From Flavobacteriales bacterium UBA7690 (lineage in GTDB: Bacteria > Bacteroidota > Bacteroidia > Flavobacteriales_F > PHOS-HE28): a DNA stretch of 64,000 nucleotides. Position 1 is the first letter of the stretch. Every line of letters starts with the position of its first letter. Below the pieces are notes generated by a model. That model did not search any database, was not told the origin of the DNA, and saw nothing but the letters and a program-made list of their open reading frames with translations. Shown here piece after piece: positions 1,827 to 64,000 of this stretch. The position numbers were made by a program, and so were the translations under genes. The stretch covers positions 66,182 through 130,181 of the forward strand of contig DLGQ01000039.1 in the NCBI GenBank assembly GCA_002482775.1, read 5' to 3'.

Positions 1827-3746
1827 CTAGGCTTTTTCTGCCAGCACCTCGTCGTAGACCTTGATCATGGCCCGGGCGACGTTGTCCTGCGAATAGCGCG
1901 CACCGGCCGCTGCGGCAATGGCCGTGCGGTCGAAGGTCACTTCGCCACGAACGATCCGGGTCAACGCATCGGCGAACGCCTGCACATCGCCCGGCGCGCA
2001 CAGGATACCGTTGGTATGATCTATCAATTCGGGCACACCCCCTACCGCGTGGCTCAAAACCGGCGTGCCACTGGCCAAACTTTCGATGATGATGCACGGC
2101 AGATTCTCCGTCTTCGTCGGATGCACCAACAAGTGCGCATGACCTAGGAAATGCGCGATCTCCGGCTTCAACTGGTAGCCGCGGAAGTTGACCTTCACCT
2201 TGCCCTCCAACGCGCGCGCGTGCACCTTGATCTTCTCCATGGGTTCGCCATCCCCGATCCAATCGACCTCAAGCGAAGCCGCTACATCCGAAGGCAACAG
2301 GTGCAACGCATCCAAGAACAACAGCGGATCCTTCAGCCAAGACCACCGGGCGGCCAGGACGATCCTGAACGGCGCAGGTGCTGCCAAATCCATGGGGCGG
2401 AACAAGGGTGATGCCACGTTGGGTACTACAGCGATCTGCTCCTGGCGAACACCGTATTCGGAGACCAACGTATGGGCCAGGTCGTGGGAGACCGGCAAGA
2501 CCCGCTTGATGGACTTGTGGGCGAACCAACGACGGATGCCCTCGCGCAACACGGCCGGGTCGCCGAGCTGCCCACTGTTTATACCGATGCGGTAAAAGGA
2601 ACTATGCTCCGTAACCACGACAGGAAGGCCAAGTGAAGCGGCTACCGGGGGGAAGCAGGCGGTGCTATCGGTGCGAACATGCACATGGGCGATGCGGAAG
2701 GCGTAGCGTGCGGAAAGATCTTCCACGATGCGGCGGTAGTAGCGGCGCACCAAAGCGTCATGTACGCCAAAACGCCGAACGGGTGTGCGGATGATGGCCT
2801 CGCAGACGACCACCTCCCCATCACGCGATTCCACGAACGACACGCCCGGAGAGCTCCCCTTTTCCACCACCACGCGCACCACCACCACTTTGCGATGCCG
2901 GGCCAAGGCCTGTGCATGCTCCCAGACGTAAACCCCGTTGTGCGGATTTCCCGGCAAGGGCCACCAATCAACAATGAAAAGCACAGCGTCTTGCTTGGTT
3001 CCCGGGTTCTGCACGGTGGCGCCACCACCGACCAAGCGGGAGAACCGACCGGCCATCGTCCGCTTGGGTCGCTTCAGTTTCACGGGAAGGTCCGTGTCGT
3101 AACGATCGATGAACAGCACAGCCGCATCGTTGCTGTTCTCCAACCACAGGCCATAGTGCTCCACGAAACGCAGGTACAGACCCGCGTTAGAAAGCTTGGG
3201 CGCCAATTCTGCCAAGTGGATCTGCTGGTCGATGACCTGCAAACGCTCCGGATGGTGCTGCTGAAGCCAATGGATGTGCTGTGGCGAAGGGATATGCACC
3301 ACGATGGTGCCTCCCGGGGCAAGCAAAGACGCCAACTTCTTGAACAGCTCACCGTGGTGATCCAACGGGATATGCTCCAGCACATCGGGCAGTACGATCA
3401 GGTCGAAAGCCCCGTCAACTTCCAGCGCCACGATATCGCCCACCACGAAATCCACGTTCTGATGGCCCTTCAACCGCTGCCTAGCCGCCTGAACGCTTCG
3501 CGGGCTGATGTCGTTCGCCAAGAGGGTCCCGGTGGTCACCACTTGAGCGATCAGTTCTGTTTGGGTGCCTACCCCACATCCGATCTCCAGCACGCGCGAG
3601 CCCGCATGCATGCCTGCCTTCCGCAGCCACACCATGATGCTACGGTGGCGCTCGTTGACCCCAATGGCCACCTGCTGATCCACGTATTCATCATAGAACC
3701 GCTCCACCTCTGAAGGCGCGGCCGGTGTTGGTCGGGTCGGTTCCAT
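1827..3746 (-). CDS. fusion protein: N-terminal class I SAM methyltransferase + C-terminal GT4/GT1-type glycosyltransferase
   Basis: 639 aa. N-terminal part has VLEIGCGVGTQT and DLIVLPDVLEHIP (methyltransferase motifs I and post-II). C-terminal part has HLLVHPTKTENLPCIIIESLASGTPVLSHAVGGVPELI (GT-B E-x7-E region). Confidence 0.85.
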   Translation of the reverse strand: MEPTRPTPAAPSEVERFYDEYVDQQVAIGVNERHRSIMVWLRKAGMHAGSRVLEIGCGVGTQTELIAQVVTTGTLLANDISPRSVQAARQRLKGHQNVDFVVGDIVALEVDGAFDLIVLPDVLEHIPLDHHGELFKKLASLLAPGGTIVVHIPSPQHIHWLQQHHPERLQVIDQQIHLAELAPKLSNAGLYLRFVEHYGLWLENSNDAAVLFIDRYDTDLPVKLKRPKRTMAGRFSRLVGGGATVQNPGTKQDAVLFIVDWWPLPGNPHNGVYVWEHAQALARHRKVVVVRVVVEKGSSPGVSFVESRDGEVVVCEAIIRTPVRRFGVHDALVRRYYRRIVEDLSARYAFRIAHVHVRTDSTACFPPVAASLGLPVVVTEHSSFYRIGINSGQLGDPAVLREGIRRWFAHKSIKRVLPVSHDLAHTLVSEYGVRQEQIAVVPNVASPLFRPMDLAAPAPFRIVLAARWSWLKDPLLFLDALHLLPSDVAASLEVDWIGDGEPMEKIKVHARALEGKVKVNFRGYQLKPEIAHFLGHAHLLVHPTKTENLPCIIIESLASGTPVLSHAVGGVPELIDHTNGILCAPGDVQAFADALTRIVRGEVTFDRTAIAAAAGARYSQDNVARAMIKVYDEVLAEKA

Positions 3747-53730: not shown

Positions 53731-53866
53731 GTGGGTCGGTTGTCGAACCGTGTGCCAAAGTAGAGGACACGTTATCGTATTCTACTGACATGTCCTTGAA
53801 TGGGTTTGAGCAAAGCAGGACCCATGGAAATCATGACCCGTCCTGAAATGGGACCCCGACCGGGCC

Positions 53867-54991
53867 TCAGCCCTTCTTCTTCCCGAACCAGCGCGCGTGC
53901 AGCGATGGTTTGCGCGGCGTGCCATCGTCGCTACCGAGCACATAGCCGAAGGGCTTCAGGCCGGGCACATGATCGAAGGCCACCTTGAGCACGGCCGTGA
54001 GGGGGATGGCCAGGAACATGCCGGGTATGCCCCACAGCGCGCCACCGATCATTACCACGATGATGGACACCAACGCGTTCAGCTCCACGCGCGAGGCCAC
54101 CACGTTGGGCACGATGAAGTTGTTGTCGACGAACTGCACGGCGCTGTAGAGCACCAGCACCCACAAGGCAGCGCTGGGTTCCATGGTGGCCAGGGCGATC
54201 ACCATGGGCAGCACGGTGGCGATGATCATACCGATGTACGGGATCAGGTTGAGCACGGCGGCGATAACGGCCAGCAGCAACGCGTACGGCACACCGATGA
54301 TGAGCAAGCCGGCGAAATTGAGCACGGTAACGATGCCCGCCTGCAGGATCAGGCCGATGAGGTAGCTCTGCGCAACGCCCTTCGCACCTTGCAGCATGTG
54401 GTGTACGGCACCCAGCTGCGTTGGGCTGAACAACTGATCGATGAAGGTGAGCAGCAACCGCTTGTAGAGGAGGAAGAGGAAGGTGAACACCGGCAGAAGG
54501 AATGCGAAAGCGAACACGCTGCCCATGGTGATCAGGGCGCCGCCCACCAGCTTACCGCCCCGGGTCATGCTCTCCTTCTTCGCCGTGGCCAGCGCGTCGT
54601 CCACGGTCTTGGCATCCAAGTCCGTGCGCGACAATACCCACCCTTGCAGTTTGCCGCCCAGCGCGCCCACCTTTTCCTCCAAGCCCGGCAAGCTCGCGCT
54701 GAAGTGCGCAGCTTGGGTGATGATGAAGTACGACAGCCCGGTCGCACAGCACATGGCCAGCAGCACAGCGAGGGCGATGGCCACCACGCGGTTCAGGCCG
54801 TGGCGCGTCAGGAAATTCACCAACGGGTTCAGCAGCAGGGCCAGCAGCAGGGCGAAAAGCAAGGGCACCACGATGGGCTGCGCCTGCACAAGGCCATAAA
54901 CCAACGCGACCAGGCCCAGCACGATGAGCGCGAGCTTCTGGTACACCGGTTGGATCACATGCGGATGCGTGGTCGTGGCGGGTTCGTTCAT
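53867..54991 (-). CDS. AI-2E family transporter (PerM/UPF0118)
   Basis: About 8 TM helices. Terminal block is NALVSIIVVMIGGALWGIPGMFLAIPLTAVLKV. Start at MNEPATT. Confidence 0.85.
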   Translation of the reverse strand: MNEPATTTHPHVIQPVYQKLALIVLGLVALVYGLVQAQPIVVPLLFALLLALLLNPLVNFLTRHGLNRVVAIALAVLLAMCCATGLSYFIITQAAHFSASLPGLEEKVGALGGKLQGWVLSRTDLDAKTVDDALATAKKESMTRGGKLVGGALITMGSVFAFAFLLPVFTFLFLLYKRLLLTFIDQLFSPTQLGAVHHMLQGAKGVAQSYLIGLILQAGIVTVLNFAGLLIIGVPYALLLAVIAAVLNLIPYIGMIIATVLPMVIALATMEPSAALWVLVLYSAVQFVDNNFIVPNVVASRVELNALVSIIVVMIGGALWGIPGMFLAIPLTAVLKVAFDHVPGLKPFGYVLGSDDGTPRKPSLHARWFGKKKG

Positions 54992-55119
54992 GGCGTAAGG
55001 CGAGCGGTGATCAACGCTGCCCAGCCAAGGTATCCCGTTATGATCTCCGAAGGGCGCTCGAATGGTCAAAGCCTACACACCGCCTTCCGTCCTCGGAGAC
55101 CCCGCCTTCGTGAGAAGCC

Positions 55120-55716
55120 TCATTCCTCCCACCGCACCGCCACCACCATTTCGTTCCGGCGCGCCAGCAGCTGCCAGGGCGGATCGTAGCCCAGGAAACG
55201 CACGGGGCCTATCTGTTCGAGCCCGGCCTCCTTCACCTTCCGCAGGAGCTCCTTCGCGTACTTCTCGAACTTCTCGTCACTGGAAAAACCACCGAAACGC
55301 AGTACAGCCACCACCTCTTCCGGAACGCGTTGAAGCTTCACGTTCGCGTCGTTCGGTTCGGGCAGGCTGTCCATGGTAAGGTCCGATGGCATCACGAAGC
55401 GCATGCGCGAACTGTCCGCTCCCATCTCCATGTGTACCGGGGCCGTCATGGCGATCTTCTTCCCGCCTTCGTTGCCGCCGAAGATGTAGCCCGCCAGACT
55501 GCGGAAGCCGGAATTGCTGATCTCCTTGTACGTACCCCCTGGCCGCAGCACCGTGGCGGTGAGCGCTTCGGGATAACGGCGGATATCCATATCCCCGATG
55601 GTCTTCAGCACTGCATATGGCTGCTGTGGTGTGCCTTTCGTGCTCATGGTGGTGTAGGTCTGGAACGCGATGAACAAGAAGACAAGACCGCCGATGATGT
55701 ACATGACTTTGCGCAT
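55120..55716 (-). CDS. SOUL heme-binding-family protein
   Basis: PYAVLKTIGDMDIRRYPE, GFRSLAGYIFGGN, IAMTAPV, LGYDPPWQLLARRNEMV. Confidence 0.85.
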   Translation of the reverse strand: MRKVMYIIGGLVFLFIAFQTYTTMSTKGTPQQPYAVLKTIGDMDIRRYPEALTATVLRPGGTYKEISNSGFRSLAGYIFGGNEGGKKIAMTAPVHMEMGADSSRMRFVMPSDLTMDSLPEPNDANVKLQRVPEEVVAVLRFGGFSSDEKFEKYAKELLRKVKEAGLEQIGPVRFLGYDPPWQLLARRNEMVVAVRWEE

Positions 55717-55810
55717 GAATGAAGCTGTACAGAGGTAACACCTGGGACAGGGAAATGGTGCGATGCAACAGCACGATCAGGTCATGCGCTCCTCCCACAA
55801 GGTGAACGAA

Positions 55811-55908
55811 CATCCGCGAGCAGCGGACAGAGGGCGGTGGCGGTCTAAGGAACCATAGGGGTCATCCGCTTATCGCTTCGCAAAAGCCTCGCGAGCAGCG
55901 GCACAGGA
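55811..55908 (+). repeat. structured intergenic repeat, copy a (two partial units)
   Basis: GCGAGCAGCGGACAGAGGGCGGTGGCGGTCTAAGG is a 3' part. It is followed by GGGGTCATCCGCTTATCGCTTCGCAAAAGCCTCGCGAGCAGCGG, the 5' part of the long form. Alignable by eye to copies b-g. Confidence 0.7.
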
Positions 55909-55928
55909 AAGAGACTCGCACTTGGCCT

Positions 55929-56492
55929 CTACTTCCCTCCCTCCTCACCCCCCATCATCCCCAGCTGCTCCATCATCTTGAACTCCTCCATATAGCCCCA
56001 GTGCTCCACCACTTTCCCGTTCTCGAAGCGAAGCACATCCACCGTATGCACATCGATGGGCTTGTTCGTAGCGGGCATGCCTTCGCCCATAGGACCGGTG
56101 TTCACGCCCTTCCAGCGGTAATGCGCCACCACACGATCGCCATCCGCGATCAGGTGTAGGTCCTCGGTCTTGTTGTCGGTGAAGGCCCCGGAGGACTTGG
56201 CGATCATGTCCTTCAGCTGCTGGATGCCCGTGGTAGTGACACCCGGCATGGGGATGTTAGACTTGAAATTCTCCGCCACGATCTCCTCGATGCCGTCCGT
56301 CTTCCCCGAGAACCACAGGTCGAGGAAGCGCTGGGTGGTCTGCTTCATCTGTTCCACCTCCGCTTGCTTCACACTGTCGGCCGACATCATGGCTTTGTGC
56401 TCGGCCATCATCGTGTCGTGCTCGGGGTTGGGTCCTCCGCAAGAACACAGGAATGCTGCTAGGGGTAGGGCAAGTACGAGTGGGTTCTTCAT
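55929..56492 (-). CDS. SnoaL-like/ester-cyclase-family lipoprotein
   Basis: Lipobox LAAFLCSC. LIADGDRVVAHYRWKGVNTGPM...ATNKPIDVHTVDVLRFENGKVVEHWGY. Confidence 0.7.
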   Translation of the reverse strand: MKNPLVLALPLAAFLCSCGGPNPEHDTMMAEHKAMMSADSVKQAEVEQMKQTTQRFLDLWFSGKTDGIEEIVAENFKSNIPMPGVTTTGIQQLKDMIAKSSGAFTDNKTEDLHLIADGDRVVAHYRWKGVNTGPMGEGMPATNKPIDVHTVDVLRFENGKVVEHWGYMEEFKMMEQLGMMGGEEGGK

Positions 56493-56576
56493 GCGAATTC
56501 AAGTTGGAAATCGAATGTAAGGAAGGGTAGCGGGCCTGGTAGCAAGCAGGAGAAGAAAAGTGATGACTGCTGCGCA

Positions 56577-56646
56577 CCGCAGGGCCGTCGACTCAAGAGC
56601 AGCGAACAGAGCCGACGGAGCATTCGGAAGGACACCCGGCTATAGG
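56577..56646 (+). repeat. structured intergenic repeat, copy b (short form, degenerate)
   Basis: CCGCAGGGCCGTCGACTCAAGAGCAGCGAACAGAGCCGACGGAG...GGACACCCGGCTATAGG. Confidence 0.7.
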
Positions 56647-56663
56647 CCGCACTCAGCAAGCGA

Positions 56664-57212
56664 TCACGCGGTCCGGCGCCGCACATACTCGCTCTGTACG
56701 AGCCCGCCGGGCAAGCTGCGGCTCGCCACCAGCTTCATCGGGATGTCGCGGTCCAGCGCCCCGAACAGGCGAACACCCTGCCCGATAAGCACCGGCACAT
56801 GGGTCACGATCAAGCGGTCGATGAATCCCGCACGCAGGAAGCGCTGCACCGTGGCCCCGCCATCGATGTACAGGTTGCGGAAGCCGCGCGCGGCTAGCTG
56901 CGCCACCACTTCCTCCGGTGTCGCGTTCAACAGTTCCACATCGCCACCACGGTCAAGCGCAGGCGATAGGTCGACGGCCGTGCTACTGAGCACGATGACC
57001 TTTTTCGCATACGGCCAAGCGTCAAAACCCATCACCACCTCGAAGGTCCTCCGGCCCATCACCAGCGCGTCGATGCCGGCCATGAAGGCCTCGTATCCGT
57101 GGTCCCCCATCTCGGCCGTGCCATCCCCTTCCAAGAAGTCCAACGCGCCATCGGGACGTGCTATGAAACCATCGATACTGATGCCGCAGAAGACGGAACA
57201 GGTGGAGCGCAT
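56664..57212 (-). CDS. dihydrofolate-reductase-like (RibD C-terminal domain) family protein
   Basis: ISIDGFIARPDG, VMGRRTFE, LYIDGGATVQRFLRAGFIDRLIVTHVPVLIGQGVRLF. Confidence 0.8.
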   Translation of the reverse strand: MRSTCSVFCGISIDGFIARPDGALDFLEGDGTAEMGDHGYEAFMAGIDALVMGRRTFEVVMGFDAWPYAKKVIVLSSTAVDLSPALDRGGDVELLNATPEEVVAQLAARGFRNLYIDGGATVQRFLRAGFIDRLIVTHVPVLIGQGVRLFGALDRDIPMKLVASRSLPGGLVQSEYVRRRTA

Positions 57213-57265
57213 GGTGCGAAATTATCCCACCGGCACCGAAGGCCATGCGGTCGAAATGGCGGTGC

Positions 57266-57340
57266 CCGATGGGCCGTCTACTCAAGAGCAGCAGACAGAC
57301 CCGGCAGAGTTCTGGAAGGACATCATGAGGTGGCCAAGAA
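57266..57340 (+). repeat. structured intergenic repeat, copy c (short form, degenerate)
   Basis: CCGATGGGCCGTCTACTCAAGAGCAGCAGACAGACCCGGCAGAG...GGACATCATGAGGTGGCCAAGAA. Confidence 0.7.
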
Positions 57341-57366
57341 TGTGATCCGCGCCGATCGCCTCTTCC

Positions 57367-58113
57367 CTACCTCCCGGCCGATAGACCCGTCCATTGCCGC
57401 ATCAACTCCAAGACCTGTTGGTCCCTTTGTGCCAACTCCGGCCGCTGCTGCCCTTGTCGGCGGATCTCGGCCTCCACATCCAGCAGCATGCGTTGCCGTT
57501 GCCCGGCTGAGAAGTGATCGAAGTAGCGCTTCATGTCCAAGGACTCGTCCAGCGCTTGTTGGTCCGCACCGAGGCACCCTTGGTCCAGGAACGTGGTGAA
57601 GTAGGTCAACCGCTCGCTGGGGTCCCAAACGCCGGTCGCATTGCCGTGGAACATGGACCCGAAGACCTCCGTGGTGCCATCGGCAAGCTGCTTCACGCCT
57701 TGCATGGTAGGCGTGTGGTTCACAGAGAAGAAATCGAACAGACGCTGGAGGGGATCCTTGCTTTTGTTGAAGCGCTTCAAATAGCGCTCGAAGAAGTGCG
57801 CGCTGAAGTAGATATCCGCATCGCTGCCGAGCAGATCCACCCGCACGGCACGCAGCCGCTTATCGCGACCATGATACCGGACCAGGCCGGCCATTTGCGT
57901 GCTCCGTTTGGTGCGGATCAACACCAGGATCCACTCGTTGCCGCGCGGCGAACGCCAGGTGATGGCCTGCTCAATGCGATCGACGCCCTTGGGCGAGACA
58001 CGAAACTCACGCTCCATGCGCTTGCCTAATGGCTTCAACTTGTTCACCAAGGCGCGCAGGTCCTTCCGCGCGTCATCGGCGACTTCCTTGGGTGACATCG
58101 AACGTACGACCAT
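57367..58113 (-). CDS. hypothetical protein
   Basis: 248 aa from MVVRSMSPKE. The longest-ORF ATG (58200) lies inside repeat copy d, so an internal start is preferred. No motif recognised. Confidence 0.45.
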   Translation of the reverse strand: MVVRSMSPKEVADDARKDLRALVNKLKPLGKRMEREFRVSPKGVDRIEQAITWRSPRGNEWILVLIRTKRSTQMAGLVRYHGRDKRLRAVRVDLLGSDADIYFSAHFFERYLKRFNKSKDPLQRLFDFFSVNHTPTMQGVKQLADGTTEVFGSMFHGNATGVWDPSERLTYFTTFLDQGCLGADQQALDESLDMKRYFDHFSAGQRQRMLLDVEAEIRRQGQQRPELAQRDQQVLELMRQWTGLSAGR

Positions 58114-58194
58114 GGCATACGGGGTTTGTATGCCGCTTGTACGGGTGCGAGCTGGTGGGGTTACTCCTAATATTGGCACGCTTGCGGCTTCGAT

Positions 58195-58334
58195 CCGCAT
58201 GGTCGTCCGCTATCGCTTCGCCAGGCCCCGCGAGCATCGGAAATCCCGCTGTTCAGCGGGACCGGTGGTGGTATAGGAGGACACCATGCGGCGGTCTAAA
58301 CCGGGGAGGGGAGGTGACCATGCGGTGGTCTAGA
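58195..58334 (+). repeat. structured intergenic repeat, copy d (long form with duplicated 3' arm)
   Basis: CCGCATGGTCGTCCGCT-ATCGCTTCGCCAGGCCCCGCGAGCATCGGAAATCCCGCTGTT-CAGCGGGACCGG...GGACACCATGCGGCGGTCTAAA...GACCATGCGGTGGTCTAGA. Confidence 0.8.
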
Positions 58335-58752
58335 TGTGCCTCCTCACCCAAGGATCGAAACCAGTGGTGGGGGAATCATCGCTCGCAGGATCATCGGCCG
58401 TCCTGATCAGCTGCTTCTTGAATGCCCAGTGCCTCAGTTGCGCGCTGGTCCGCACGTTGAAGTTCCTCCCCAAATGAGTGAAGTAGGCCAGAACGGTACG
58501 CTCCTGCAATCCCAATGCGTGTCTGATCTCTTCATCCGTTAGCTCCGGATGTTGGCATACGTACTGAACGAAAACCCATTCGCGTGGTGTGATCCGGGCG
58601 AGGATATGTTCCCGCGTACCCAATTCCGGGTCCTCGTTGGCCCCATACAGCGCATTGTAGACCTTGGGCCCATGGTTGAAACGCGCCAAGGCAAGCGATG
58701 ACGGCGCGCTACCGTAGCCGAGACAAATGGAACGTTCCTGTTCATCAGCCAT
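58330..58752 (-). CDS. LuxR/GerE-type helix-turn-helix protein
   Basis: ITPREWVFVQYVCQHPELTDEEIRHALGLQERTVLAYFTHLGRNFNVRTSAQLRHWA fits the LuxR C-terminal HTH pattern. Start is uncertain (58752/58764/58785). The stop codon is the CTA of the repeat terminus GGTCTAGA. Confidence 0.5.
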   Translation of the reverse strand: MADEQERSICLGYGSAPSSLALARFNHGPKVYNALYGANEDPELGTREHILARITPREWVFVQYVCQHPELTDEEIRHALGLQERTVLAYFTHLGRNFNVRTSAQLRHWAFKKQLIRTADDPASDDSPTTGFDPWVRRHI

Positions 58753-59214
58753 ACTCCCATCCATTCGGCCCGGGAGAAGGCGCATTGAACGATACCAAAT
58801 TGGATCAAATACACCTGATCGGGACCAGCAGGTAGCATTGGTTACGAACCGGACCGAGTTGATCAACAACGCTCGTGGAAACCACTCCGAACCGCTCTAC
58901 ATGAAGAAGAGGGTATTTGCACTCGCGAACCGCAAGCCCTTTCTTCTCGCAAACGTTCCCATCAAAAACGAAACCGCCGGCCGGGGAATGCATCCTGCAA
59001 CGCACTTGACCGCATCCTTCAGTGTCCTGCGAGATCCCAGCGATGCGACCAAAGGCCACTCCGTAAGCTACCGCCGCCAAAGCCCGCGGAACAACAGCAT
59101 ACATGGCAGATGCATGCCAGGCGCTGGTTCATCGCGCACGATCGTATCGTGCATCGCACCTAGGCGACGCGCGGCAGGACCCAGAGAAGATGGTGTGGTG
59201 AGCACGGCTACGGG

Positions 59215-59318
59215 CCGCAGGCTTGCCTTCCGGAGGCAGGGTCGCCCGCTCAGCGCTTCGCTAGGCCTCGCGAGCAGCAGGAACCGGATGGGAGAACAAC
59301 CCGTGGCAGCCTATGATC
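59215..59318 (+). repeat. structured intergenic repeat, copy e (long form, with extra hairpin insert)
   Basis: CCGCAGG-[CTTGCCTTCCGGAGGCAGG]-GTCGCCCGCTCAGCGCTTCGCTAGGCCTCGCGAGCAGCAGGAACCGG...ACCCGTGGCAGCCTATGA. Confidence 0.7.
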
Positions 59319-59345
59319 CTCGGACATTCCAACGCTGCGTGCACC

Positions 59346-60026
59346 TCAATACAGCGGAACGATACGGCCATTCTCAATGCGGCCTTTGAAGCGGATGGTG
59401 TCGCCCACTTGGAAGAGCACCTCTTCGAGCATGATGTCACGATGGCCACCACGCCCGTTGCCGATGACGTAGCTGTCCACCATGCCGGAGCGACCTTGCA
59501 GGGCCTTCACGGCGCGTATATCGTCGGCATATTCCTGATCGAAGAGCGTGGAGACGTGGTTGCTTCGGAACCTCCCGCCAAGCTTGCCGCTGTGATCGCC
59601 CGGCGTCCACATGAGCGTGATGGAATCGGGGAGAGCGGTGTAGCTGACATCCCCGATGGAAACCACCAGGCCGGGTGCTCCCATGAAGATGACATCGTCA
59701 TCATGATCGTAACGTGGTCCGCTGCTGGGGCCGCTGCTGCGTCCACCGGTCGGTCCGCTCATGTCCATCAGCAGGGCTTGGGTCAAGGCGTAGGCCGCTA
59801 CGTCCGCGTGGGAGAAGGGCGCACGCACCGTGCCTGCGGAGACCACGATGGCCTGCAGTTCGGGCAAGGCTTTGATGCGTTCCACCTCGTTGTACCGCTC
59901 CGCCTGCATCCGCTCGATGCCCACCACATCCCGGTTGAACTTGCTTACGAGGGCATAGATGCCGAGACCAGCGACCAGCAGAATGAACACACCCGAAATG
60001 AGCAGGATCTTGAAGGCTCGACGCAT
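59346..60026 (-). CDS. N-terminally membrane-anchored hypothetical protein (possibly GIDE-domain-like)
   Basis: MRRAFKILLISGVFILLVAGLGIYALV TM anchor. GTVRAPFSHADVAAYAL loosely recalls GIDE domains. The longest-ORF ATG (60074) lies inside repeat copy f. Confidence 0.45.
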   Translation of the reverse strand: MRRAFKILLISGVFILLVAGLGIYALVSKFNRDVVGIERMQAERYNEVERIKALPELQAIVVSAGTVRAPFSHADVAAYALTQALLMDMSGPTGGRSSGPSSGPRYDHDDDVIFMGAPGLVVSIGDVSYTALPDSITLMWTPGDHSGKLGGRFRSNHVSTLFDQEYADDIRAVKALQGRSGMVDSYVIGNGRGGHRDIMLEEVLFQVGDTIRFKGRIENGRIVPLY

Positions 60027-60055
60027 GGGACGAAAGTAGAACAGTGCATGGCGAG

Positions 60056-60150
60056 GCGCAGGGTTTTCGCTCATCGCTTCTCAAGGTCTCGCGTGTAGCG
60101 GACATCCCGCTGTTCAGCGGGACCGGCGGAGGTTTGGGGGGAAACACCTG
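60056..60150 (+). repeat. structured intergenic repeat, copy f (long form)
   Basis: GCGCAGGGTTTTCGCTCATCGCTTCTCAAGGTCTCGCGTGTAGCGGACATCCCGCTGTTCAGCGGGACCGGCGGAGGTTTGGGGGGAAACACCTG. Confidence 0.75.
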
Positions 60151-60182
60151 ATCTTGAGGTCACAAATTGTGACCTCAAGATC
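60150..60182. promoter_or_regulatory. 33-nt perfect palindrome 12 nt upstream of the ORF6N start codon
   Basis: GATCTTGAGGTCACA-AAT-TGTGACCTCAAGATC: 15-bp arms and a 3-nt centre. Confidence 0.6.
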
Positions 60183-60194
60183 TACTTTGGTGCC

Positions 60195-60773
60195 ATGAGC
60201 AAGGCGCTGGTCAAGATCCCGGACGAGATGGTCGCGCGGAGGATCTTCTCGATCCGTGGCGAGAACGTGATGCTCGACACCGACCTGGCACAGCTATATG
60301 GCGTGGAGACCAAAGTGCTCAAGCAGCAAGTCAAGCGTAACGTCCAGAGCTTCCCGGAGGATTTCATGTTCGAGCTGACAGCTGAGGAGTTCGAGCACTT
60401 GAGGTCACAAATTGTGACCTCAAGACATGGCGGCGCCCGGTACATGCCCATGGCCTTCACCGAGCATGGCGTCCTCATGCTGTCCAGTGTGCTCAAGAGC
60501 CCGCGCGCACGTGCCGTGAACATCCAGATCATGCGCCTCTTCGTGAAGATGCGTGAGCACCTGCTGACGCACAAGGATGTGCTCCTTCAACTGGAGAAAC
60601 TGCGTGGCACTTCGAAAGAGCACGCGGGCAAGATCGCGGTGATCTTCAAGTACCTGAAGCAGATGGAGCAGCGCCAGCAAGAGACCGAACTACTTGACGA
60701 GATCCGGCGTGGCAAGGGGAAGAACCCCATCGGCTTCAAGGCTGTGACCGAGCGGCGCGGCACGAAGAAGTGA
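60195..60773 (+). CDS. ORF6N-domain (KilA-N-related) protein
   Basis: IFSIRGENVMLDTDLAQLYGVETKVLKQQVKRNVQSFPEDFMFELT..EEFEHLRSQIVTS..GGARYMPMAFTEHGVLMLSSVLKS matches the ORF6N domain as I remember it. Confidence 0.85.
   Translation: MSKALVKIPDEMVARRIFSIRGENVMLDTDLAQLYGVETKVLKQQVKRNVQSFPEDFMFELTAEEFEHLRSQIVTSRHGGARYMPMAFTEHGVLMLSSVLKSPRARAVNIQIMRLFVKMREHLLTHKDVLLQLEKLRGTSKEHAGKIAVIFKYLKQMEQRQQETELLDEIRRGKGKNPIGFKAVTERRGTKK
60398..60425. repeat. second exact copy (28 nt) of the palindrome, inside the ORF6N coding sequence
   Basis: CTTGAGGTCACAAATTGTGACCTCAAGA is identical to 60153..60180. It encodes LRSQIVTSR. Confidence 0.9.
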
Positions 60774-60786
60774 TCACGGCTCCGGG

Positions 60787-60860
60787 CCGCAGGGTCGTCC
60801 GCTCAAAAGCAGCGGACAGACCCGGCGGAGGTTTGTGTGGACACCCTGCGGTGGTCTAGA
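60787..60860 (+). repeat. structured intergenic repeat, copy g (short form, best preserved)
   Basis: CCGCAGGGT-C-GTCCGCT-CAAAAGC-AGCGGAC-AGACCCGGCGGAGGTTTGTGTGG-AC-ACCCTGCGG-TGGTCTAGA. Has a 9-bp outer stem and a 7-bp inner hairpin. Confidence 0.85.
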
Positions 60861-61275
60861 AGGCATCATGCGACTGTCGCGATCGCAGTCCTGCATACAT
60901 CCAACAGCTAAAGGCGAACTCCTTCTCTTCAGCATCTCTTCCCCAATCGTAGATCATCCGAAAGGTCAGACACGTCTCGATCAATGCTCTCAACAACACA
61001 TTGGCGGACTGCAAGTCGACGACCTTTCCACTCAGTTCCTTGTTGTAAGCGTTCGAGAATGAGTAGCCCTCCAGCAGACTCTTCATCGACATTGTATGGT
61101 ATGCGATCTTGAACCCGAGCTTCTCCGAATAGGTCAGCCATTCCAGCTCGCGCGTTCTTGCTTCATGCGGAGCCTCAATAAGATAACCTGCAAGGTCAAC
61201 AAGCCGACTGAAGTTCCGAAAATGGAGTGATGCGTCCTTACTTCCGGCCTCTTTGAGGAGTTGTAGGAGAATCAT
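60856..61275 (-). CDS. cassette ORF C5, hypothetical protein
   Basis: 139 aa from MILLQLLKEAG (a GTG-extended ORF runs to 61290). Follows the decayed carB-tail copy R5. Stop codon lies in the terminus of repeat copy g. Lower GC. Confidence 0.45.
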   Translation of the reverse strand: MILLQLLKEAGSKDASLHFRNFSRLVDLAGYLIEAPHEARTRELEWLTYSEKLGFKIAYHTMSMKSLLEGYSFSNAYNKELSGKVVDLQSANVLLRALIETCLTFRMIYDWGRDAEEKEFAFSCWMYAGLRSRQSHDAF

Positions 61276-61282
61276 TGTATCA

Positions 61283-61351
61283 ACACCCACCTAAAGAACG
61301 GCCCTTCAGATCCTTGATGAAGTAGATCTCCTCGCTGGTGCTACGCATCAT
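61283..61351 (-). repeat. carB-tail repeat R5 (decayed: frameshifted, 3' part missing)
   Basis: The minus strand reads ATGATGCGTAGCACCAGCGAGGAGATCTACTTCATCAAGGATCTGAAGG-GCCGTTCTTTAGGTGGGTGT, i.e. MMRSTSEEIYFIKDLKG followed by a 1-nt deletion. Confidence 0.75.
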
Positions 61352-61619
61352 TCTCGGCGTATTGAATGAGTCGCTCACCGATCGCCATCATGGGATCATT
61401 GGTGCCATGCGCGGCTTTCCAGTCAAACACAAAGTCACGTGCGATAGAGACCTCGAGGAAGTAATCTTTCCCATACATCCGCTGGAACCCGACCAGTGCC
61501 CCATCTTCTTGACCAGGACCGACAACCGCTTCTGAATGAACCGTCCATGGACGAGCAGCACAAATCGTGTCCTCTTCGTTGAACGAATCTATCTTCTCTA
61601 TGACGTCCAATAAGGTCAT
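61341..61619 (-). CDS. cassette ORF C4, small hypothetical protein
   Basis: 92 aa, acidic. ATG is 2 nt after the stop of R4. Its own stop lies 8 nt inside R5. Confidence 0.5.
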   Translation of the reverse strand: MTLLDVIEKIDSFNEEDTICAARPWTVHSEAVVGPGQEDGALVGFQRMYGKDYFLEVSIARDFVFDWKAAHGTNDPMMAIGERLIQYAENDA

Positions 61620-61621
61620 GC

Positions 61622-61744
61622 CTACCGACTGAGGTACATCGAGCGTTCACTATACACCTGTCGGAAGAACCCCGCATCAACGTGCGGGGCAGGCTCCTCC
61701 TTCAGCTCCTTGATGAAGTAAATCGCTTCGCCGGTGCTCTTCAT
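61622..61744 (-). repeat. carB-tail repeat R4 (intact 40-codon ORF with 9-codon in-frame insert)
   Basis: MKSTGEAIYFIKELKE[EPAPHVDAG]FFRQVYSERSMYLSR*. The ATG overlaps the stop of C3 (ATGA). Confidence 0.85.
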
Positions 61745-62043
61745 TCGGCACGGTATGAGTGGAACGTTCCAAATCTAAGGTACCCGGTCTCCTTCGCTTC
61801 TTCGGCCTTCGTCTTGAGTTCGGCTGCAACCAAATGTGATCGATGACGATCCTCGAATGGTTCAAGATCCTCGATGCCTACCACTGTCATCTTGTAGTGT
61901 TCAGCAGCAGCCTTGACCTCGCCTGAGAATTCAACAGCATCCTTCACGAACGCAACAACTTGAACGAAGCTGTTCTCTTTGATCAATTCGCAACCTCGTT
62001 CAGGACGCAGATGTACCAGTCCGATCCAGACGCGCTTCATCAT
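61741..62043 (-). CDS. cassette ORF C3, small hypothetical protein
   Basis: 100 aa from MMKRVWIGLVHL. ATG is 3 nt after the stop of R3 (a TTG at 62046 abuts it). Confidence 0.5.
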   Translation of the reverse strand: MMKRVWIGLVHLRPERGCELIKENSFVQVVAFVKDAVEFSGEVKAAAEHYKMTVVGIEDLEPFEDRHRSHLVAAELKTKAEEAKETGYLRFGTFHSYRAE

Positions 62044-62046
62044 CAA

Positions 62047-62163
62047 CTAACGGCTCAGATACATGGACTGCTCCCCGCACACCTGCTTAAAGAGCGGATC
62101 CCTCAGGTCCTTGATGAAGTAGATAACCCTGCCTCCGGCAGGCAGGCTCCTTGTGTTCTTCAT
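62047..62163 (-). repeat. carB-tail repeat R3 (intact 38-codon ORF, most diverged, in-frame hairpin insert)
   Basis: MKNTRSLPAGGRVIYFIKDLRDPLFKQVCGEQSMYLSR*. The ATG overlaps the stop of C2 (ATGA). Confidence 0.85.
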
Positions 62164-62936
62164 TGACCCTTCTTCATTGGAACGATTGGTTCACACCGTT
62201 CAAAGTACAGTGTGTCCCAGAGGCGCGCATCCATGCTCATGACCATTCGGCTCTCATCGATCTCAAAGATGGGTGCACGTGCTCCAACAATGCACCCACG
62301 ACCGAGGCCAATGGCACTGTCTGCGGGCTCCCAACTGTACTCGATCACTGAATCGGGATTGTTCTCTGCATAGATGCGAGCTAGACAGTCACGCCCTAAA
62401 TGCAGCGTGAAGTCATTCAACTCATCCGGATAGTTCACCAACTTGATAGGTCGCCAGCTCGCCGCGCGCAACTTCCACCAACCCGCAACTCTTCTATAGA
62501 GCGCATCCCCAGCTCGAAGTTCAGCCAGTGACTGTGCAAAGTCCGACTTCCACGGACGATCAAGATTGCGATAGATGAGGGTGGTACCCTTCGATGAGAT
62601 ACTGATCGAGGCACTATCGATCACCTGCAACTGATATTTCACCTCTTGACCAACGAGAACGTTCGCATCCTTCACAACTAAACAGCTATCGACCAAATAG
62701 CGATCCTTGCCTTGGGCAAATCGCCAGAATTCATTGCCACTCGTGATGATGATCACGTCAGTACCCCACGGCCGTGAAGCACCTACGACTGAATCGAGTC
62801 CCCATTCACCGATCGCCGTGAATATTCCTTGACGTCCAATCGATCCCGTCGCATCATGACCAGTTGGCGGTGCGCAGGAGATAACGAGACTCGCGAAGAA
62901 CAAGAAGAGTCCGATCATCCTGACTTCGCGCTTCAT
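62160..62936 (-). CDS. cassette ORF C2, predicted lipoprotein of unknown function
   Basis: 258 aa. Signal plus lipobox MIGLFLFFASLVISC. ATG is 3 nt after the stop of R2. Confidence 0.6.
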   Translation of the reverse strand: MKREVRMIGLFLFFASLVISCAPPTGHDATGSIGRQGIFTAIGEWGLDSVVGASRPWGTDVIIITSGNEFWRFAQGKDRYLVDSCLVVKDANVLVGQEVKYQLQVIDSASISISSKGTTLIYRNLDRPWKSDFAQSLAELRAGDALYRRVAGWWKLRAASWRPIKLVNYPDELNDFTLHLGRDCLARIYAENNPDSVIEYSWEPADSAIGLGRGCIVGARAPIFEIDESRMVMSMDARLWDTLYFERCEPIVPMKKGQ

Positions 62937-62939
62937 GGC

Positions 62940-63038
62940 CTAGCGGCTCAAATACATTGACCTCTCCTCATACACCTGCCTAAAGAACGGCTCCTTCAGG
63001 TCCTTGATGAAGTAGATCGCTTCGCCGGTGCTCTTCAT
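62940..63038 (-). repeat. carB-tail repeat R2 (intact 32-codon ORF)
   Basis: MKSTGEAIYFIKDLKEPFFRQVYEERSMYLSR*. By hand alignment 85 of 99 nt are identical to R1, and most differences are synonymous. Confidence 0.9.
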
Positions 63039-63039
63039 T

Positions 63040-63846
63040 TCACTGAATTGATCTCCGAGGCAAACGGCCGTATGCGTACCTCGTCGTACTCCGTAAGCTT
63101 AAAGTGGTCCGCAATAGCCCGTCTTCATCATAGACATTACGTTCATGGCTGTTGATCTTGCCCTTGATGAGCTCATACCGCTCCACCTCCCTGCCCTGCT
63201 CATCCCTGTTCACCACCTTGATCGCAGATAATGAAGAAGTGTCAAGCTCAGCCAGCAGCGGGTGCACATCCCGAATGTCGTAAACGGTCCGGTCCCGGTA
63301 TACCACCTTGCCGTACTCGTCCAGGTTGATCTGTTCCATTCTCCGTCCTAGGCTATCATATGTGTACGTCCGCGTGTAATCACTGCGCCACCTAGGCGGG
63401 TTTGAGATCCTGCTGATCCGCCCTTCGCTGTCATATTCCCAAATGGTGACCCCTGTCTTTTCCATTCGACCTTTTTCGTCAACGCCATAGTCCGTGACGG
63501 AAAAGAGATGCCCATGCTTATAGCGGAAGTTGTACCTGCTCAAATCGTGAAAGTTCTGAACCTGAACCCTTATTCTTCTCTTCCTATCGTAGATGTATGA
63601 ATCATGGACGGGTGACTTCTCTCCTTTGAACCAAGAGAACTGCTCCCGTTCCAACCCATCTTGATCATAATAGGTGATACTGGTGGTATCCACCCTCGTT
63701 GTATCGGTGGCGTATACTGTGGTGACGATACAAGCGGAATCAAGCCGCTGCCCTAAACAGAAGGATGTCAATAGCACCAGTCCTGAGATGAACAGCAACC
63801 GCAATGCGGATACCCGTTCGCTATGCGATACGGGCGCGCTGATCAT
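63040..63846 (-). CDS. cassette ORF C1, secreted/lipoprotein-like protein with YD-type repeats
   Basis: 268 aa. Hydrophobic N-terminus LRLLFISGLVLLTSFC. Repeated YDxxG motifs (YYDQDGLE, WEYDSEGRISRI, YTYDSLGRRMEQ, VYDEDGLLRT). The ATG overlaps the carB stop (ATGA). Confidence 0.6.
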   Translation of the reverse strand: MISAPVSHSERVSALRLLFISGLVLLTSFCLGQRLDSACIVTTVYATDTTRVDTTSITYYDQDGLEREQFSWFKGEKSPVHDSYIYDRKRRIRVQVQNFHDLSRYNFRYKHGHLFSVTDYGVDEKGRMEKTGVTIWEYDSEGRISRISNPPRWRSDYTRTYTYDSLGRRMEQINLDEYGKVVYRDRTVYDIRDVHPLLAELDTSSLSAIKVVNRDEQGREVERYELIKGKINSHERNVYDEDGLLRTTLSLRSTTRYAYGRLPRRSIQ

Positions 63847-63941
63847 CGGCTGAGGTACATGGAACGCTCCCCATACACCTGCCTGAAGAACGGATCCTTC
63901 AGGTCCTTGATGAAGTAGATCGCCTCGCCAGTGCTCTTCAT
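63843..63941 (-). repeat. carB-tail repeat R1 (the native terminus of carB: last 32 codons + TGA)
   Basis: MKSTGEAIYFIKDLKDPFFRQVYGERSMYLSR*. This is the reference copy for R2-R5. Confidence 0.9.
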
Positions 63942-64000
63942 CTCAGGTCCGAGGCTCTTGTCCACGTTCGGGAACTTGTCGAAGCTGAAGACGGGCACCT
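63843..64000 (-). CDS. carB: carbamoyl-phosphate synthase large subunit, 3' end (partial; short form without the C-terminal MGS-like allosteric domain)
   Basis: VPVFSFDKFPNVDKSLGPEMKSTGE matches the conserved CarB block FPF.KF.G.D..LGPEM(K/R)STGE. The ORF ends 26 codons later and runs off the right edge. Confidence 0.8.
   Translation of the reverse strand, partial: VPVFSFDKFPNVDKSLGPEMKSTGEAIYFIKDLKDPFFRQVYGERSMYLSR

Follow-up and report, generated by a model that had tools for sequence, protein, structure and literature searches.

The stretch examined here, called the window throughout, comprises 64,000 nucleotides (nt) of contig DLGQ01000039.1 (positions 66,182 to 130,181) of Flavobacteriales bacterium UBA7690, and it ends inside a minus-strand open reading frame (ORF) that constitutes the 3′ end of the housekeeping gene carB (63843..64000, CarB residues 885–936 plus the stop codon). 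The last 32 codons of this ORF, MKSTGEAIYFIKDLKDPFFRQVYGERSMYLSR with the stop, recur four more times behind the gene, giving five co-oriented tail copies that span 61283–63941, each with an unrelated ORF behind it. On the minus strand, the live carB tail R1 (63941-63843, the last 99 nt of carB) is followed by the stubs R2 (63038-62940), an open 32-codon mini-ORF carrying D920E and G928E; R3 (62163-62047), an open 38-codon mini-ORF; R4 (61744-61622), an open 40-codon mini-ORF; and R5 (61351-61283), which joins the end of ORF4 at codon 907, lacks 1 nt and breaks off behind codon 926. Across the 64 kb the 14-mer TACTTCATCAAGGA turns up exactly five times, versus 0.01 expected. Between R1 and R2, 12 of the 96 coding positions differ (14 of 99 when the stop codon is included), with two amino-acid changes. 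These positions and counts bear out a preliminary description, made from the sequence alone, that had placed five tail copies and five mutually unrelated ORFs on the minus strand, counted 14 differences in 99 nt with two replacements between R2 and R1, and recognized R5 as frameshifted and truncated. The greater length that its coordinates give to R3 and R4 was also found, and derives from small G+C-rich hairpin insertions, i.e. a 28-nt hairpin in place of 10 nt in R3 (62125-62152, net +18), resembling a sequence at 59221-59242, and a 27-nt hairpin, type ‘a’, in R4 (61670-61696, net +24), the same type as in stubs of L187, L185, L217 and L222 (such labels denote the related carB loci or contigs compared with the window). 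The decay of the copies grows with distance from carB, and the G+C content drops from ~0.59 to 0.52–0.54 across the array.

The anchor of the array is a 936-residue CarB without the MGS domain, and full genes ending in ...SMYLSR before the stop were found in L001, L007 and L059. R1 is the natural carB gene end, because the full 936-residue CarB proteins of close relatives end in exactly its sequence; the contig L210, with 100% identity to the window over 9.3 kb, carries the carB ORF a further 361 codons upstream. In contigs from five other sequencing data sets, produced with different assemblers and pipelines, the array is 99.8–100% identical with the same order and junctions, and therefore it is not the assembly artefact that the preliminary description had singled out for checking. 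Neither the window nor the lineage loci yielded any other duplicated gene end.

All five cassette ORFs lie on the minus strand. ORF1 (63040..63846) encodes 268 residues with a hydrophobic N-terminal segment and weak YD/RHS-repeat matches, and its exact look-up returned no match; a ‘99-residue first cassette’ considered in L212 and L214 was discarded, being the end of ORF1 only. ORF2 (62160..62936), a predicted lipoprotein of 258 residues, is full-length, judging from homologues of 255 residues with 79–86% identity, one of which sits inside a different, longer array. ORF3 (61741..62046) encodes 101 residues, and ORF4 (61341..61619) is a full-length gene for 92 residues, with homologues of 91–106 residues and an AlphaFold model (pLDDT 89) that had no match in the PDB. 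The ORF of ~139 residues noted earlier behind R5, ORF5 (60856..61278), does exist, and it is not a complete gene but the first 139 codons of a 296-residue DUF5677 gene truncated at ~60860. This truncation is a structural variant in the population: L211 and L212 are 99.8–99.96% identical to the window up to 60860 and then continue with an intact DUF5677 gene (in L211 at 2707-3597, with further ORFs behind it), whereas in the window and L210 the gene is cut at codon 139 and followed by an element resembling repetitive extragenic palindromes (REPs) and an ORF6N segment. Apart from the weak YD-repeat matches of ORF1, no curated family was matched by ORF1–ORF5 in PADLOC, Pfam or NCBIfam, no immunity family was found among them, and no mutual similarity was detected.

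The units are packed tightly, all nine junctions in the window overlapping or lying ≤4 nt apart. The carB stop overlaps the ORF1 start as ATGA, and ORF1 is separated from R2 by 1 nt and R2 from ORF2 by 3 nt; the ORF2 stop is the TGA within the ATGA of R3, which ends 3 nt before ORF3; the ORF3 stop overlaps the ATG of R4 (ATGA), with 2 nt between R4 and ORF4; and the ORF4 stop lies inside R5, whose shifted frame ends 4 nt short of the ORF5 ATG. Among the stubs that start at codon 905, 14 of 16 span a multiple of three nucleotides and 12 of 16 are open from the ATG to the canonical stop, while carrying insertions or deletions of +18, +24, +57, +75 and −3 plus a compensating −1/−2 pair. Most separable insertion or deletion events in stubs keep the reading frame. 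Only three in-frame ATGs fall in the last 75 codons of carB (M864, M905 and M932). Stub starts coincide with or lie close to M864 or M905; stubs starting elsewhere acquired an ATG from foreign sequence, e.g. where the stop of a YhcG gene overlaps the joint of ATGAACACC and GACAAGTTC. Together, the ATG-linked starts and tight junctions suggest selection for translatable stubs, which may also account for the class that begins at Met905. No excess of promoter- or terminator-like sites was detected in the array by a scan that does not cover Bacteroidota promoters, and Rfam gave no match in the 56–64 kb part of the window.

Pairwise comparison of related loci revealed how such arrays grow. L222 has the array of L223 plus one extra carB-proximal unit: the L223 live tail and the DNA downstream of it are kept in L222 as stub 1, with one mismatch from codon 865 through the stop and beyond, whereas the new live tail of L222 shows ~20 mostly synonymous differences. 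Stub 1 of L222 is a former live carB end. In L217, L218 and L221, the carB bodies differ by 3–6% and the tail with the ORF4′ cassette is 100% identical, the identical tract beginning at different points within carB. The ORF4 cassette, fourth in the window, is the first after carB in L217, L218, L220 and L221 (78% identity), both of its junction sequences being conserved and its neighbours different. The G928E mark of R2 (YEER) also precedes the ORF2 homologues in L222, L224 and L225, and therefore the right part of a tail moves together with the ORF behind it. Likewise, the YhcG cassette has in all contexts a right-part tail remnant upstream and the left part, from codon 892, downstream, and its stub is the same in L001 and L002 up to codon 922, where the two switch together with the downstream DNA.

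The ratio of nonsynonymous to synonymous change (pN/pS) was 0.06 when live tails were compared with one another, 0.10 for live tails against stubs and 0.15 for pairs of stubs, and therefore the copies diverged as working gene ends and not by drift in place. Live tails are identical at the protein level except for an R-to-K change of the last residue in L104, and all stubs resemble the tail of their own lineage. Thus the tails are foreign in origin, the carB end has been displaced serially, and units are gained or lost next to carB and re-used in other arrays. Two earlier proposals are upheld by these data, that the copies had evolved as functional carB ends (stub pN/pS 0.10–0.15 versus 0.06 for live tails) and that insertion had occurred serially with replacement ends, the latter by the L222/L223 pair, the pN/pS values and the reordering of cassettes in relatives.

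Stubs behind carB are common in close relatives, represented by Flavobacteriales metagenome-assembled genomes (MAGs), and rare elsewhere; many of the array-bearing MAGs come from metagenomes apparently of wastewater or activated sludge. A second tail copy within 10 kb was present in two of 80 GTDB species representatives with this CarB type, the close relative L059 and the unrelated low-G+C Bacteroidia L080, and scans of GTDB genomes and Joint Genome Institute metagenomes yielded mostly ordinary carB, only L059, L080, L119 and L170 adding arrays. A count of 442 protein matches to the tail, taken for a huge stub family, was dropped, many of the ‘73-residue’ matches being split carB genes (L017, L019, L022; frameshifts or gene calling). 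carB was called as split genes in L017, L019, L021, L022 and L023, with a separate 73-residue C-terminal ORF from the conserved Met of VMLG, and in L019 and L021 the carB body was not called at all, possibly owing to frameshift errors or to another cause.

As the preliminary description had anticipated, the presence, order and number of cassettes vary between strains. Behind carB, L007 has two methyltransferases with a PLD/BfiI nuclease and a ParE pair, stubs of 79 and 13 residues, a YhcG nuclease and a 45-residue stub; L001 and L002 have an ORF of 241 or 268 residues, YhcG and a stub; L010 has a 1235-residue type IX secretion system (T9SS) protein, a 68-residue stub, a 219-residue ORF and HEPN AbiU2; L187 has a 798-residue T9SS protein, an 88-residue stub, an 88-residue ORF, a 32-residue stub, YhcG, a stub and Imm27; L218 has ORF4′, a stub and CdiI_2; and L222 packs at least nine tails into 6 kb. 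Across the lineage, the cargo comprises immunity-type genes (the families Imm27, CdiI_2 and SUFU), restriction-modification, toxin-antitoxin pairs, HEPN proteins and T9SS surface proteins. Upstream of carB, L001 and L007 carry ParE toxin-antitoxin genes and housekeeping genes.

Several smaller elements accompany the relatives’ arrays. Genes of the IS200-type Y1 family resembling REP-associated tyrosine transposases (RAYTs) lie beside the arrays of L001 (11050-11454), L006 (1157-1561), L170 (1433-1960) and L218 (2000-2548); they are mutually 51–54% identical, a remnant persists in L059, they often adjoin a four-helix-bundle gene (23S rRNA IVP family), and they may be the ancestral carB neighbour and the source of the local REP load. 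A miniature inverted-repeat transposable element (MITE) of ~95 nt, with terminal inverted repeats CTCATTCCGCC...GGCGGAATGAG, occurs in the tail remnant upstream of YhcG (L001 8790-8890, L002 8660-8760, L059 8138-8254 and 8937-9055; several copies in L059). The distant, A+T-rich locus L171 (1-1265) has a single BRO-N/ORF6N-like gene flanked by the carB stop and a direct repeat of 121 nt, whose start corresponds to codon 922 and which continues for at least 78 nt beyond the stop.

Stub 5′ ends were mapped to codons 831, 849, 853, 858, 865, 869, 876, 892, 905, 907, 914 and 922/923, with stub lengths from 13 to ~106 codons, and the stubs run to the stop, except R5 and a right-truncated stub in L222. 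Small G+C-rich hairpin insertions (net +6 to +33 nt) were seen in stubs and never in live carB tails, e.g. in L187 (3748-3782, 4145-4210, 5685-5719), L185 (1270-1356), L007 (8768-8802) and L059 (10548-10582), and they recur at codons 889–893, 904/905, 908–911, 919/920 and 922/923. The 14-nt sequence shared by all five copies had been put forward as an invariant core serving as a recombination site, and in this role it was rejected: the IYFIKD that it encodes uses two-fold-degenerate codons throughout, the genome being G+C-rich, other genomes’ live tails show synonymous variants of it, and its third positions vary as little in stubs as in live tails.

We consider it somewhat better than an even bet that the locus is a displacement array, formed by repeated recombination of relatives’ carB 3′ ends, each with the gene following it, into the resident carB. 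Donor DNA from related strains would supply a carB 3′ end plus whatever gene followed it, the left crossover being homologous and inside carB. The right junction could fall illegitimately inside the resident carB end, founding a new stub, or alternatively join a donor stub to the resident live tail by homology, stacking an existing unit. The incoming tail would become the live carB end and the old one would be shunted downstream as a stub ahead of older cargo, so that the moving unit would consist of the right part of a tail, an ORF and the left part of a tail, and no dedicated recombinase would be required. The variable tract starts within carB in L217, L218 and L221 and the L001/L002 switch at codon 922 argue for homologous recombination anchored in carB combined with an illegitimate or a second homologous joint in the tail. 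The stack would probably be co-transcribed from carB, and the short translatable stubs abutting their neighbours may relay ribosomes from gene to gene; dependence on RecA is an inference of ours, as are the DNA-transfer route, the co-transcription and the coupling of translation. A bolder version, which we hold to be rather doubtful, sees here a recombinase-independent gene-capture platform on an essential housekeeping gene, which uses its own end as the handle, so that the downstream gene of any relative could be stacked, and keeps the displaced ends as translated, ribosome-relaying mini-ORFs of a promoterless array.

A number of points weigh against the displacement account. For RecA, 99-nt repeats with 85–90% identity make poor substrates. 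No fewer than 13 stubs start exactly at the Met905 ATG, and at codon 922/923 (TTC/AGG), the right arm of an inverted repeat CCTGAAG-N8-CTTCAGG, at least five junctions coincide with one recombination breakpoint and one hairpin-insertion site; this position is where the short stubs of L215, L007 and the distant L171 have their left edge and the truncated L222 stub its right edge, where L001 and L002 switch and where hairpin ‘b’ is inserted. Such non-random junctions suit a site- or structure-specific step, and the hot spots at 905 and 922/923 possibly mark an undescribed site-specific activity. ‘Head-only’ carB fragments (residues ~827–894, tail-less), which lie behind the last stub in L001 (11659-11862, 12439-12606) and L002 (11135-11176), one of them ending where the YhcG stub begins (codons 892–894), find no simple account under displacement. 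The recombinase search reached over 10-kb flanks and one 64-kb window, DNA upstream of carB lying outside the window, so that an enzyme encoded elsewhere in the genome is possible. Co-transcription and coupling rest on spacing and frame statistics, and the stub indels could instead date from the time when the tails were live.

The principal competing explanation invokes a site-specific recombinase whose gene lies elsewhere in the genome or on a helper element and which would recognize a core in the carB tail near the boundary of TTC and AGGCAGGTG and move integrase-less circular cassettes, in the manner of a cis-mobilizable element (CIME), a satellite or the clusters of attC sites lacking integron integrases (CALINs). 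We rate it as unlikely, at perhaps one chance in a few. The recurrence of junctions at 922/923, in left- and right-truncated stubs and in a distant lineage, would be expected of it, as would the start of at least 13 different stubs at one nucleotide, the position of the newest unit next to carB and the small hairpin insertions at both borders of the 8-nt spacer; the 905 class, however, is also explicable by selection for the only in-frame ATG of that stretch, repeat extents differ widely (codon 831 to 923), and identical imported tracts reach variable points inside carB. In line with the preliminary description, Pfam scans of 30 window ORFs gave no recombinase, and the same held for the island ORFs and the Pfam annotation of related islands; no tyrosine or serine recombinase was present downstream of carB in ~160 other Bacteroidota loci, and a motif scan of ~225 loci gave only three Xer-like ORFs, all upstream of carB in unrelated taxa. 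YhcG was rejected as a recombinase for the window, from which it is absent. No viral contig scanned carried the carB tail as an attP-like site, and DNA folding of R1–R4 revealed no attC-like fold (z-scores −0.1 to −1.3 versus shuffles). The earlier suggestion of integron-type cassettes with a dedicated site therefore finds no support, given the lack of a recombinase in cis and of an attC fold and the variable 5′ boundaries and tracts.

A HUH enzyme of the Y1 class (RAYT/IS200-like), acting on single-stranded hairpins and carrying both hairpins and cassettes to preferred tail sites, seems improbable. Its appeal lies in the RAYT-like genes adjoining arrays in L001/L006, L170 and L218, with the remnant in L059, and in REP-like hairpins inserted in stubs where cassette junctions also fall; yet the window has no Y1 gene, no target tetranucleotide is common to the insertion flanks, terminal hairpins are not a consistent feature of the cassettes (R2 has none), and RAYTs are normally tied to the spread of REPs only. 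That the carB end was duplicated in place in tandem, the copies drifting and unrelated genes being inserted later, would explain the common orientation and the decay rising with distance from carB, but it is already contradicted, and we give it very little credence, by the mostly synonymous divergence between copies, by tails closer to those of other genomes than to their neighbours, by the arrival of a unit with a foreign tail in L222 versus L223, and by the recurrence of cassettes in other arrays. Stitching of repeats from several strains during assembly, which a metagenome-derived contig with 99-nt repeats might invite, has a negligible chance of being correct given the concordant contigs of the five other data sets.

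Among known systems, phage 21 and e14 at icd, and the accretion of integrative and conjugative elements (ICEs) and CIMEs, use an integrase, carried or borrowed, and a fixed crossover. As in the carB array, the insert there supplies a functional gene end, the displaced end becomes a direct repeat and repeated use leads to tandem arrays, but carB units are as small as one 92-residue ORF, no integrase was found and repeat lengths vary; tested for a fixed crossover, the repeat extents vary widely, yet the junctions cluster at codons 905 and 922/923. Integrons and CALINs share with it the promoterless single-ORF units in one orientation, the very short spacers, a ~100-nt repeat between units, insertion at the array head and the occurrence of the same cassette at different positions among strains, whereas the carB array has no intI and no attC-like fold, its repeat is a coding gene end and its boundaries vary. 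The rAID-1 arrays of orphan immunity genes in Bacteroidales have a XerD-like recombinase at the 5′ end (Ross et al. 2019, 10.1101/471110). They resemble the carB arrays in their Bacteroidota host, co-directional genes, lower G+C content, repetitive sequence between genes and the immunity families found in relatives (Imm27, CdiI_2, SUFU), though not among ORF1–ORF5 of the window; they differ in that carB holds the 5′ position of the XerD-like gene and no recombinase is present.

The closest known process is C-terminal displacement as at rhs, cdiA and the effector loci of type VI secretion systems (T6SS), here occurring on a housekeeping gene, and the likeness to rhs and cdiA, dismissed in the preliminary description as superficial, in fact points to the nearest known mechanism (PMC2935791, PMC5361080). 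At rhs, displacement is proposed to proceed by homologous recombination with variable-length core fragments and phylogenetic limits (Jackson et al. 2009, PMC2935791); the range of stub 5′ ends (831–923) and the lineage-own tails fit displacement, because that model predicts both. Both at rhs and in the orphan modules of cdiA-CT/cdiI (Poole et al. 2011, PMC3150448), as here, an intact gene is followed by co-oriented 3′ fragments of variable length with ORFs, the fragments come from the resident gene’s own clade, the latest arrival is the one attached and its predecessors are pushed downstream, and, no recombinase being present, homologous recombination is the proposed driver. The carB anchor differs in encoding a housekeeping enzyme instead of a polymorphic toxin: it lacks a variable tip, its repeat continues as far as the stop, only the downstream cargo varies and this cargo is no cognate immunity partner of the anchor. 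The defining feature of the displacement family is an anchor that is a polymorphic toxin with a variable tip, and on that count the array falls outside it. In Vibrio cholerae, T6SS effector–immunity modules are acquired by homology-facilitated illegitimate recombination and then spread by homologous recombination (Kirchberger et al. 2017, PMC5361080); upstream homology anchors the incoming module, older genes shift downstream, no integrase is involved and the authors note the integron-like look (PMC5361080). There, effectors are displaced and immunity genes retained, whereas in the carB array a functional gene end is displaced and always replaced by an equivalent.

A literature search for a carB-linked island, or for such a stack at a housekeeping gene, found none. 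The novelty claimed in the preliminary description accordingly holds for the setting and not for the process: no account of a displacement array behind a housekeeping gene came to light, while the mechanism closest to it is known from polymorphic-toxin and T6SS effector loci. Until now, displacement arrays have been regarded as peculiar to polymorphic-toxin loci, where they serve to swap toxin tips, and here a stack of cargo stands behind a metabolic gene. A conserved gene end alone can serve as a capture site, so integrase-less integration hot spots may arise elsewhere, and such islands are marked in metagenome annotations by short ‘partial CarB’ ORFs. Should the displacement account hold and similar tail-stub stacks stand behind further conserved genes, a general route to integron-like arrays would have been overlooked. 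The open, abutting mini-ORFs also make translational relay in promoterless arrays testable in Bacteroidota, a phylum largely without Shine-Dalgarno initiation.

Beyond the array, a REP/MITE-like hairpin element (60787..60861) lies at the ORF5 truncation point, and its family also occurs at 56577-56634 and 57266-57340; with further elements at 58191-58284 and 60052-60145, two related REP/MITE-like families are represented, which share the motif CAAACCTCCGCCGG followed by a hairpin and separate the genes of the distal stub-free part. An ORF6N-domain gene on the plus strand (60195-60773) occupies the strain-specific distal segment 60152..60773; a 28-nt perfect palindrome, CTTGAGGTCACAAATTGTGACCTCAAG, lies upstream of it (60152-60179) and has a second copy inside the gene (60398-60425), a layout similar to that of the relatives’ YhcG cassettes, in which another palindrome, AATTGTCCAACAGnCTGTTGGACAATT, is found both upstream of and inside the gene. 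The distal stub-free part between carB and a conserved S41 peptidase (53780..60150, minus strand) encodes a 242-residue ORF, a LuxR-like ORF, a 277-residue ORF, RibD_C, SnoaL and SOUL genes and an AI-2E transporter, which relatives share piecemeal and in a different order. Most of the remaining window, at ~3700–35100, is taken up by a large polysaccharide-biosynthesis region with flippases, GT2 and GT4 glycosyltransferases, a DegT aminotransferase, epimerases and methyltransferases.

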